Assembly (NCBI GenBank): GCA_963793305.1
Contig: CAWBZV010000003.1
Coordinates: 672,001 to 736,000, forward strand
From: an uncultured Gemmatimonadales bacterium
Lineage (GTDB): Bacteria; Gemmatimonadota; Gemmatimonadetes; Gemmatimonadales; Gemmatimonadaceae
Length of the DNA: 64,000 nucleotides
Reading direction: 5' to 3'
Every line of letters starts with the position of its first letter. Position 1 is the stretch's first letter. Shown one piece after another: positions 36,001 through 39,000 of the stretch. A program made the position numbers.

Positions 36001-39000
36001 TTCGTTTCCGTGCCGAACGTATGGAGGGCGGTGGGGAGGAGCGCCGAGGGCAGTTCGCATCGGCGGGCGAAGCTCCCGAATCAGGATGCGCTCCGACTGT
36101 GGAATCCACACGGCGACGGGCAATCGGTGATCGTCGCCGTCGCCGACGGCCACGGGAGCGCCACGCATTTTCGCAGCGCGACGGGTTCGCGGTTCGCGGT
36201 GGAGGTGGCCGAGCGGGTGTTGCGCGATCTCGATGGCGCGTTGCGCGCGGGCGGCGCGCTGGACGCTGAGCGCGAGCAGTGGATTCGGAAGGAGATCGTC
36301 TCGCGCTGGCGTGCGTGCTGTATCGCGGACGCCGAGGCGAACCCGTTCACGTCGGCCGAGGAGGTACGTCTGAGCGGAGCGGGCGCGCGCGACCAGATCT
36401 TCGATCGCGCGCTGGCCTACGGCTCGACGCTGCTCGCGGGGTTAGCCACCGACGGGCGCCTCGTACTGCTGCAGATCGGCGACGGCGACATCCTCGCGGT
36501 CGATGCGGCGGGATCCCAGTTCCGTCCTTTCCCCCGCGACGCTCGTCACGTCGCGAACCTCACGACGTCACTCTGTCTCCCGGACGCGGTCGACAACGTC
36601 CGCGTGGCGTCGCTCTCGCCGAACACGATCTCCCTCCTTCTCTTCGCGACCGACGGCTACGCCAACTCCTTCGCCTCAAGCGAGGCTTTCGAGCGCGTCG
36701 TCGGCCCGCAGATTCTCTCACAGGTGCGCGAGCGGGGGGTCTCCTGGGTCTCTCAGGTTCTTCCGAGCTCCCTCAAAGCCGCGGCCGAGCGTGGCAGCGG
36801 CGACGACGTGACGCTCGCGATTCTCACATGCGAGGACGCCCCAGCCGGAGCCATTGCCCCGGGGCAAGGTCGCAGCGATGCACCGGTGACGCTCAGCGGG
36901 CTCGTGGTCATGCTGGGCGTGCTGCTCGTGGTCGGGTTGTGTCTCTGGCGAGTACTGCTGCCCCGTTGACGGGAAAGACGAAACCCCGGGGAATCCTCCC
37001 CCGGGGTCACGCGGCAGCCCAGGAAGCGACTGACAATCTAGGTCATGCTCCGGCGCAATCAACGTGCAACATTCCACGTCCACAAAATGCGAAACCCCGG
37101 GGAATCTTCCCCCCGGGGTGACGCGGCAGCCTCGCAAGCAACTATAATTTAGGCCGCTCTCACAGCGTGGTCAACGTGTAATCACGCACGGCGAACTAGC
37201 GTGCCGAGGACGGGATTTGAACCCGCACGGCCCTTTCGAGCCAGCAGCTTGCGAGGCTGCCGCGTCTACCAGTTCCGCCACCCCGGCACCTCGCGTGCTG
37301 GGCGAACACTGGGAATACTGCGACACAGTAGCCAAGAAAAGCGCACCACGACTAGTCAGCGGGCGAAGAGTATAGCGAGTCTCCGCCACGCCGTCATCGT
37401 TGAGTTGCGAACCGTATCGTTAAGCACTGAGCGATCTACAACGAGTCGAGCGTCAGCGCAATCCTTGGCCTGCGCTTGTCGTTCCAAGCTGCTGCTCGCC
37501 CCAAATGTAATGCCCGAACCAGTCCAGGTTCTCCTGCATGACCGATCGTTGCTGCTTGGGTTTGTCGATTGGGTGCCCGAACCCGGGATACACGACCATG
37601 CGCACCGGCACGCCCTTATCGCGAAGCGCCTGATAGAGCTCGAACCCATTCGGGATGGGCACGCGCTTGTCGCTCCCCCCATGCTGTATCAGCGTAGGAG
37701 TCTTCGCGGTCTTGATGTACGTGATGGGCGACGTCTTCTTGTAGATCTCCGGATCATCCCACGGCGTCGCGTGGAGATACTGTCGCGTAAAGGGATGGAT
37801 GTCGGTATTGACATAGTAGGTCATCCAGTCGGAGATGCCCGCCCCGACCGAGACCGCCCGGAACCGATCGCTGAACGTGGTGATGAACGCCGAGATGTAC
37901 CCACCTTCGCTCCACCCCATGGATGCCACTCGGCTCCGATCGACGAACCCTCGAGCGATGAGATAGTCGACGCCAGAGATGACGTCGGCATAGTCCCCGA
38001 CGCCCAAGTTGCGCACATTGAGCGCCCGGAACTTCTCGCCGTATCCGGCCGAGCCGCGATAGTTCGGCCTCAGGATAACGGCGCCTTTGGAGGCAAAGAG
38101 CTCGACGGGATAGTATCGATCCGCGCCGAGCGTGGTGCGATCGACGCCGGTCGGCCCGCCGTGGATGACGACGAGCAGAGGGTATTTCTTGGTGGAGTCG
38201 AACCCAGGCGGCGTGATGAGCACGCCTTCGACGGCCGCGCCGTCGGTGGATTTCCACTGCACGAGCTGCCGTCGGGCCGACTTGAACGCCGACAGCTGGT
38301 CCCCCATGGTTGTAATCGCTTTCGGCGCGAACGGTTTGATGTCGGAGACGCCGATCTCCGGATACGCATTATCCCCGGCCGCGACGAACGCGCACGGTGC
38401 TCGCGTGCCGCGCGAGCGAGAACTGGCCGGCGATGCGCTTGGGATCGGAGAGCGTCTCGACGGTGCCAGACTTGGGATCGACGCGAGAGAGCACCTGGTA
38501 GGTACGCTCAAGCGGTGAGAAGTAGATGCCGTCCTTGTCCCAAGCGAACGGCGACGCATTCTCGTCGAACGACGTGGTGATCGCACGCGGCGTACCACCG
38601 TTCGCACTCACCACCGCGATGACCGTGTTCGTGTAGTAGAAGTACGGACTCCCATTGGCGGTCGAGAACGCGATCTCGTTCCCGTCCGGCGACCACACGG
38701 GGTTCGTATTGGGGCCGCCGGCCTCGACGATCTTCTTGACGCTCTTGTCGGCGACGGTGACGACGTAGATGGCGGCGGTGTTGGACGAGCCGAGGTCGGG
38801 ATCGCGCTGTGCGGAGAACGCGATGCGGGAGCCGTCGGGCGACCACGCGTATGAGCCGACGGTGAACTGGTCGCCCTCGGTCAGCCGCCGCGGCTCGCCG
38901 CCGGCCGCGTCGACGAGCCACAGGTGGCTCATCGAGTAGTCGCCGCCGATGACCTGGATGTCGCCGTAGGTACTATCGCGATCTTTGCGCGCTTTGGATT

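Follow-up and report, generated by a model that had tools for sequence, protein, structure and literature searches.

The window, a 64,000-nucleotide stretch of the genome of an uncultured soil bacterium of the Gemmatimonadales (G000 in our analysis, in which other G-numbers and L-numbers label further genomes and loci), carries a tRNA whose leucine-type body and alanine anticodon disagree, followed on the same strand by a candidate small RNA (sRNA) gene that opens with an exact complement of that tRNA. Most probably the two form a protein-free toxin–antitoxin (TA) pair, with a leucine-inserting missense tRNA as the toxin and the sRNA as its antidote. The module belongs to a family that is real and general, and that we did not find in print.

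The entire module lies on the minus strand within a 483-bp intergenic gap. A PP2C-family phosphatase gene (35971..36969, plus strand; Pfam PF13672) and an S9 prolyl-oligopeptidase-family ORF (37453..38607, minus strand; Pfam PF00326) flank it and stand outside it. Transcription of the tRNA precursor is predicted to start from a sigma-70 promoter (37369..37397; -35 at 37397-37392, -10 at 37374-37369) that scores 9/12 in a consensus scan and has a similar box 5' of related modules. A leader of ~75 nt (37288..37362) precedes the tRNA (37201..37287), which has the anticodon CGC (reading Ala GCG) and no encoded CCA and is the putative missense toxin, and a short 3' trailer (37194..37203) closes this part. 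The predicted promoter of sRNA 1 (37146..37174) has its -35 box at 37174, a 17-nt spacer and a -10 box ending at 37146, and stands at a distance that is fixed across the family. The putative antitoxin itself, sRNA 1, would be ~55-60 nt long (37083..37140). Its pairing region (37139-37120) is the 20-nt exact reverse complement of tRNA positions 21-40 (37266-37247), in the D/anticodon arm, and a predicted terminator hairpin occupies 37119-37094. A first-pass annotation had described this order of tRNA, promoter, complement and terminator, and the scan recovered it; of the 5' hairpin that it had also assigned to the sRNA, the complement is exact and the predicted hairpin measures just 4 bp, so the 5' part of sRNA 1 is probably largely single-stranded.

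Behind a second predicted promoter with a 16-nt spacer (37035..37062, from a box scan) lies sRNA 2 (36974..37029; pairing region 37027-37009, predicted terminator 37008-36982), by sequence comparison a paralogue of sRNA 1 and a candidate orphan antitoxin. It had been read as matching the stem of the neighbouring tRNA and not the anticodon. Beyond that match, sRNA 2 complements an anticodon arm bearing AGG (Pro CCU), and G000 has no tRNA with that anticodon. In an Rfam search of the window the tRNA was the sole match, with no sRNA or T-box family over the sRNA, and the same was found at 12 module loci. One DNA contig spans 36300-37953 with 7 differences and may derive from the source sample; contigs of RNA run X20 (share 0.07) cover 37394-37567, the end of the peptidase gene, and say nothing either way about the module.

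The tRNA is recognized as such by standard tools: ARAGORN calls tRNA-Ala(CGC) at 37201-37287 on the minus strand, and Rfam assigns it to the tRNA family with 55.1 bits and a long variable arm. It was found without the pattern with which we collected other odd tRNAs, that is, leucine-body tRNAs with a non-leucine anticodon. Genuine tRNA-Ala is characterized by a G3:U70 pair and a short variable arm. The window's tRNA lacks G3:U70 and carries A73, A15:U48, G18G19, A20a and a long variable arm. Among the matches listed, this leucine set is present in 55/55 module tRNAs, with A15, G18G19 and A20a forced by the search pattern and A73 and U48, also found in all 55, not forced; G3:U70 occurs in 0/55 and the variable region measures 13-18 nt, which sets these molecules apart from tRNA-Ala. 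Module tRNAs have a 7-bp acceptor and a 5-bp T stem, and keep a complete cloverleaf over varied sequences. The same A73, A15:U48, G18G19 and A20a make up leucine identity in E. coli, where, in the account given by PMC9976931, the anticodon plays no part. By these identity rules the host LeuRS, blind to the anticodon, would be predicted to charge the tRNA with leucine, which would then be inserted at GCG. GCG is the commonest codon of G000 (5.9% of codons). The codon read is among the 8 commonest of G000 in 41/47 representative modules from the matches listed (6 of the 24 pattern-allowed anticodons), a skew that could stem from GC bias combined with the search pattern.

We surveyed the family in 401 genomes of the phylum and in GTDB. 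The pattern matched 16 times in 12/401 phylum genomes; with both phylum scans joined, odd tRNAs occur in 18/401, a patchy distribution. The GTDB scan returned at least 119 stretches, and counts built on it are those of a sample. Titles for 80/119 of the matches listed name mostly Gemmatimonadota, along with Phycisphaerae, Planctomycetales, Pirellulales, one Acidobacteria and one unclassified record; the closest modules among the matches listed are from Gemmatimonadaceae or Gemmatimonadales, and the single Burkholderiales and Propionibacteriaceae matches listed sit on short MAG contigs that may be misbinned. One module, L182, is from G420, a genome flagged as unpublished, and no conclusion hangs on it.

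Complementarity is concentrated downstream of the odd tRNAs. Among the matches listed, 123 distinct odd tRNAs had enough flank (3/126 were left out for short flanks), and an exact complement of at least 12 nt lies within 150 nt downstream in 49/123 and upstream in 1/123; the control set of 30 canonical tRNA-Leu loci gave 0/30. A match of at least 10 nt was present at 57 loci, from which we kept 55 modules, leaving out L101 and L121 (no promoter or terminator); L071, which lacks a T arm, was left out of the tables. In 51/55 modules among the matches listed, the complement is preceded at 4-9 nt by the end of a TTG-16/18-xAxxxT box, compared with 0-2/55 at nine shifted anchors. To avoid circularity, we sought promoter-plus-terminator units blind to complementarity, leaving out tRNAs with fewer than 7 acceptor pairs. 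Such units were found at 52/105 intact odd tRNAs among the matches listed and at 0/30 controls. The 52 blind units cover 14 anticodons (again among the matches listed), and 49 of them contain the codon of their own tRNA flanked by paired sequence; with swapped anticodons the mean was 2.6 and the maximum 10. A search for Val anticodons yielded 10 tRNAs in 8/401 genomes. By eye, the matching codon stands just 3' of the promoter in 9/10, 8 of these 9 being previously unseen; the tenth tRNA has a flank of 73 nt and no matching codon. Relatives in all these counts are kin and not independent, and the figures are not p-values for independent events.

Each sRNA also appears to single out its neighbour. 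The cognate tRNA ranks first among 47 for 40/47 sRNAs in the matches listed, and every G000 sRNA pairs best with its neighbouring tRNA, over 14-20 nt, as against 9 nt or less with the seven housekeeping Ala/Leu tRNAs tested. G000 contains 1296 relaxed promoter boxes; just 7 have a terminator within the next ~70 nt, and the sRNA units account for 4 of these 7, so the co-occurrence of box and terminator there is not chance. Raw duplex energy without register separated the groups poorly (median -42.8 versus -42.9), and we therefore relied on exact-match and anchored tests; sense duplexes were no more than slightly favoured over the non-cognate control (43/47 versus 114/141 among the matches listed). 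Promoter spacing, cognate ranking and the covarying codon together argue strongly for the first-pass proposal of a dedicated anti-anticodon sRNA.

At orthologous loci the complement changes along with the anticodon. Next to mutS, on its 3' side, the anticodon is CGC, CGC, CTC and CAC in G000, G406, G409 and G410, with the sRNA changing to match in every case; at the site between rtcB and Ro60 the anticodons are GGC, GGC and GGA, and there too the sRNA switches along. The covariation claimed earlier thus holds at orthologous loci as well as in the blind units and the Val set. In seven pairwise comparisons of three close genomes, which overlap one another, differences number 24/70 in the anticodon stem, 395/6990 in the flanks and 9/189 in the D/T core, the stems diverging about six times faster than the flanks. 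Taken with the covariation, these counts indicate that the recognized sequence outpaces neighbouring DNA in change yet stays paired. Modules are chromosomal and syntenic over species of the genus, with loci common to 4 genomes, and they are gained and lost: in G410 the two genes that flank the window's module adjoin directly with no module between them, at G000 locus D (the rtcB/Ro60 site) leader, tRNA and pairing region are gone in one deletion with the terminator kept, and L071 retains its sRNA next to a broken tRNA. The rtcB/Ro60 locus also adjoins tRNA-like RNAs.

We infer the steps from charging through mistranslation and neutralization to addiction or defence as follows. The tRNA would be made as a precursor caged by its leader, on the D/anticodon arm, and by its 3' trailer; read-through into the downstream complement is predicted to lock it further, and with both in place mature tRNA would emerge only after slow processing. 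The sRNA, 45-75 nt long and transcribed from its own promoter, would pair with the anticodon loop and invade the stems of the anticodon and D arms, or else the variable arm, inactivating the tRNA and possibly exposing it to RNase III decay. By analogy with type I TA systems, module loss or a stop in transcription would make the short-lived sRNA vanish first and free the stable tRNA, leading to proteome-wide mistranslation and growth arrest. As the recognition sequence diversifies, extra sRNAs may guard against other alleles. Missense allo-tRNAs with other bodies arrest the growth of E. coli and kill it (PMC5389517), and tRNA-ProX causes growth defects yet also antibiotic tolerance (PMC10404621).

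The main rival to this reading gives the module another role, that of a switch by which the host would profit from mistranslation under stress, as with tRNA-ProX, the sRNA then acting as a rheostat and not as an addiction antidote. Stable chromosomal loci in 4 genomes of the genus would suit such a switch, as would the position of several modules beside genes of repair or stress response (mutS, radical SAM, uvrA, rtcB/Ro60, WYL-PafC, Lon/Hsp20 and TopIB) and the raised carbenicillin tolerance that accompanied mistranslation by tRNA-ProX (PMC10404621). We nevertheless regard it as unlikely: the target codon varies between orthologues, the recognition stem is hypervariable, and orphan sRNAs against absent alleles, together with patchy presence, fit conflict better than a host function. 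More tentatively than the TA pair itself, we put forward a possible family of all-RNA conflict systems, in which a reprogrammable missense tRNA would be the weapon and the anti-tRNA sRNA the immunity. Lock and key would diversify under selection, arrays of orphan sRNAs would confer immunity against other alleles, and if synthesis of the sRNA ceased, with the module lost or host transcription shut off by a phage, suicide or dormancy through proteome-wide mistranslation would follow.

Our neighbour survey covered 182 ORFs at 56 loci, up to two per side, from crude ORF calls. Most neighbours are housekeeping genes, and among the 182 we found no shared protein partner or conserved ORF and no integrase, recombinase, Cas or synthetase family. 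A plasmid search with the module gave no match, a phage search gave 4 partial matches to the tRNA only, and 1/47 odd tRNAs in a viral catalogue has an sRNA (L041, at a contig end). Nothing here, therefore, shows defence or mobility. The first-pass annotation had offered a TA or an abortive-infection module; the former is the most likely reading of the sequences, and the latter finds no direct support in mostly housekeeping neighbours, a plasmid search without a match and a module free of RNA cover. Genes of TA or methylase type (HicB, Phd, nucleotidyltransferase, HepT, Eco57I and N6_N4) make up a few of the neighbours, and an upstream motif shared by the modules, considered as a candidate regulator box, has 53-171 copies in G000.

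The proposed cage is predicted from folds and family statistics, and its signal is weaker than that of the sRNA. In the window, leader segment 37357-37347 is predicted to pair with the tRNA 3' end and trailer and segment 37333-37322 with the D-stem 3' strand and anticodon-stem 5' strand, and segment 37313-37301 is predicted to pair near the D loop. The fold of leader plus tRNA places the leader on the D/anticodon arm with no cloverleaf, and is no stabler than shuffles (z of 0.4); the window's own leader pairing has z=-0.8. Among the matches listed, pairing of the leader with the tRNA 5' half has a median z of -1.44, versus +0.36 at canonical loci, with z<-2 in 17/47, and the cognate leader ranks first in 1/47, a low specificity. 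Pairing of leader and 3' trailer is more discriminating, the cognate beating the non-cognate mean in 37/47 (among the matches listed; p=2e-5) compared with 15/32 and 14/30 in controls.

Folding of the read-through transcript pairs the 20-nt complement with the tRNA (z=-5.8), and a scan of the window found no terminator between them. Both would be expected of a device that works in cis only, in which the complement acts within the read-through precursor to block or pace tRNA maturation and no separate sRNA exists. We consider this quite improbable given the promoter at a fixed distance in 51/55 modules among the matches listed and the T-run directly 3' of the tRNA in several Planctomycete modules. 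One of the sRNA arrays weighs against it further. Arrays that include non-cognate units occur in this window (2 units in all) and at L265 (3 units in all); at L265 the order is anti-GTC, variant anti-GCC and, behind two terminators, the cognate unit, which from that position cannot work in cis and must act in trans. The doubt raised earlier, that tRNA and complement might simply fold on each other in one precursor, is weakened accordingly, and cis and trans action can coexist.

The sRNAs fall into two classes. Class I begins with the anti-anticodon arm and often carries a further patch complementary to the D-stem and the 5' strand of the acceptor; class II begins against the variable arm and presents the codon in its terminator loop. 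The two further G000 modules in the first-pass annotation are present as described: that at C3:451773 has a 14-nt variable-arm complement with the codon in the terminator loop, and that at C3:636248 has a 16-nt complement. Among the matches listed, the codon lies in the terminator loop in 7/7 class II sRNAs (CGC, GTC, TTC, GCC) versus 1/42 of class I. This arrangement, with the codon apart from the remaining complement, is at odds with a DNA-level inverted repeat devoid of RNA function, whether recombination sites of an invertible promoter, an att-like relic or an inverted duplication. Template switching is able to homogenize nearby inverted copies, and could have matched copies that here lie 60 nt apart. 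The asymmetry of G.U over A.C expected of pairing at the RNA level is absent (11:5, p=0.21; 25:20, p=0.55), a test that fails to separate RNA from DNA symmetry, and some odd tRNAs with broken acceptor stems resemble att relics. We give a repeat of this kind very little credence, as the complement begins at the predicted +1, the 30 canonical tRNA-Leu loci have no such complement, no recombinase occurs among the 182 neighbours, and contigs of four runs, in which rare variants drop out and which are weak evidence for that reason, contain no strand-switch joint. Equally far-fetched is a tRNA working outside translation, as a decoy for anticodon nucleases or modification enzymes or as a guide or scaffold, or in a changed genetic code: some allo-tRNAs are inactive in translation (PMC5389517) and one locus sits beside rtcB/Ro60 and tRNA-like RNAs, yet the complete cloverleaf and leucine determinants are kept across varied sequences, and a code change is excluded by the ordinary tRNAs of G000, two for Ala(CGC) and five for Leu, and by anticodons that shift between close relatives.

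Among known TA systems, one of the closest to the proposed pair is type VIII, of which TADB 3.0 records two validated kinds, creTA and SdsR-RyeA (PMC10767807). As in that type, the partners proposed here are RNAs adjacent on the chromosome, and tRNA function would be involved; the locus has two RNA genes, in putative toxin and antitoxin roles, and no conserved ORF. Should toxicity be shown, the module would formally be type VIII, yet on its sequence it would differ from each known member in that member's defining features. In CreTA the toxin, CreT, is a mini-ORF RNA by which a rare host tRNA is sequestered, and CreA uses CRISPR Cascade to repress it (PMC10767807, PMC8501985). Here the tRNA itself would be the toxin and the antidote would pair with it directly, with no linked protein partner; we saw neither a mini-ORF toxin nor a crRNA-like antitoxin with degenerate repeats beside cas genes, the 182 ORFs including no Cas. 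SdsR and RyeA overlap on opposite strands, whereas the module RNAs are in tandem on the same strand and have no Rfam match to them.

Type I systems such as hok/Sok and aapA1/IsoA1 resemble the module in its proposed control. In aapA1/IsoA1 the primary transcript is inert, processing activates it, and a kissing contact leads to an extended duplex and RNase III (PMC5416894). An inert folded transcript, activation by processing and loop-loop antisense contact are likewise predicted for the module by folds, and there are several chromosomal copies; it differs in having no toxic peptide, in targeting a tRNA, and in an antisense RNA that is a separate same-strand inverted copy and not an overlapping opposite-strand transcript.

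Natural missense tRNAs with disagreeing body and anticodon are known as allo-tRNAs, which are toxic in E. coli and occur near TA genes and transposon proteins (PMC5389517). Their acceptor branches are of the 8/4 or 9/3 type and their identity is mostly serine, unlike the 7/5 branch and leucine body of module tRNAs, and the main text of PMC5389517, supplements aside, contains neither 'antisense' nor 'complementary'. In the tRNA-ProX/ProRSx systems, bacteria have tRNAs dedicated to mistranslation that bear Ala and other anticodons on a proline body, usually with a dedicated synthetase adjacent, and we saw no antisense partner in the available text of those accounts (PMC10404621, PMC11415595); module tRNAs have a leucine body, no linked synthetase and at least 14 anticodons. 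The available text of the second of these sources, a 2024 review of tRNA mistranslation (PMC11415595), has no mention of antisense, toxin or antitoxin. In the full-text literature searched, outside which most subscription papers and supplements lie, we found no tRNA/antisense-RNA pair. Class II sRNAs recall the T-box riboswitch, where a tRNA anticodon meets a codon displayed in an RNA loop; unlike it, they lack an antiterminator, a regulated gene downstream and a match to the Rfam T-box family, and their antisense pairing is extended.

If our reading is correct, the module would provide a tRNA toxin in a TA pair and a bacterial sRNA aimed at a tRNA anticodon arm, neither of which appears in the literature searched. 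It would explain 'misannotated' tRNAs (called Ala, Arg, Gly, Asp or Val) in Gemmatimonadota, Planctomycetota and Acidobacteriota records, supply a scheme from nature by which a 60-nt RNA silences a tRNA of choice, and allow a 430-bp construct in E. coli to test whether deliberate mistranslation serves as weapon or as adaptation. New beyond the first-pass annotation are the predicted caging leader, the class II sRNAs and the arrays with a cognate unit behind two terminators.

The blind sRNA unit was undetected at 53/105 intact odd tRNAs among the matches listed, so odd tRNAs can exist without this antidote; among the matches listed, such copies are mostly of TGG, TCC, TGC and ATC types. Some lie near ORFs that we take to be transposase-like, and some precede an ORF of ~140 aa with no Pfam family above cut-off. 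The leucine-body toxin may elsewhere be held by other antidotes, for example by this ~140-aa ORF.

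Several loci depart from the full module, in which a leucine-type tRNA body with a non-leucine anticodon is followed by a promoter, a complementary sRNA and a terminator. One module locus (L248, L256 and L257; C3:~291300-294750 in G000, the genome under study) is flanked by rtcB and a Ro60/TROVE gene, and here G000 has lost the module by deletion. Two tRNA-like RNAs lie near this locus, one of which is probably a YrlA-type Y RNA. At L071 (G093:C82), the 3' half of the tRNA has been lost while promoter, sRNA and terminator are retained. L250 (G406:C90) carries a second sRNA unit, complementary to the conserved D arm and not to the anticodon. 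With this target it could serve as a broad-range antidote, but it matches the D arms of canonical tRNA-Leu as well.

Other odd leucine-body tRNAs are sRNA-less, with no detectable promoter-sRNA-terminator unit. Directly after those at L005, L065, L091, L101, L119, L174 and L205, whose anticodons are TGG, TCC, TGC and GTC, lies an ORF of 130-160 aa with a coiled coil and a probable winged helix; the five scanned gave no Pfam family above cut-off. Its product is a candidate protein antidote or regulator. Beside other sRNA-less tRNAs of missense type (body of one amino-acid identity, anticodon of another), at L145, L204, L135, L156, L162 and L192, the adjoining ORFs appear to resemble genes of IS1/IS1595-type elements, and these tRNAs are possibly transposon cargo.

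Odd-anticodon Leu-like tRNAs from Bacillota and Bacteroidota records, L092, L093, L104, L106, L109, L139 and L151 among others, form no more than 4-5 base pairs in the acceptor stem, and their 3' ends are divergent. They are probably integration-site hybrids of missense tRNAs.

Outside the window, contig C11 of G000 encodes two short-arm tRNA-like genes (53866-53938 and 51975-52049, both +) with GCG and CAC anticodons. They have in common some 130 nt of conserved sequence upstream and downstream, with a terminator at its end, and neither has an antisense copy. They are predicted to represent a separate, larger RNA element that includes a tRNA. Among accessory genes on C5, a tRNA-Ile with a TAT anticodon (432842-432915, -) is a near copy of tRNA-Ile(GAT). 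Within the window, the S9 peptidase is read as two overlapping ORFs (38369-39379 and 37453-38607, both -), owing to a frameshift that is either genuine or an artefact of assembly. About 8 kb from the module, at 44991-45898, lie a small ORF and a second ORF that look, by eye, RelB/DinJ-like and PIN/VapC-like, respectively.
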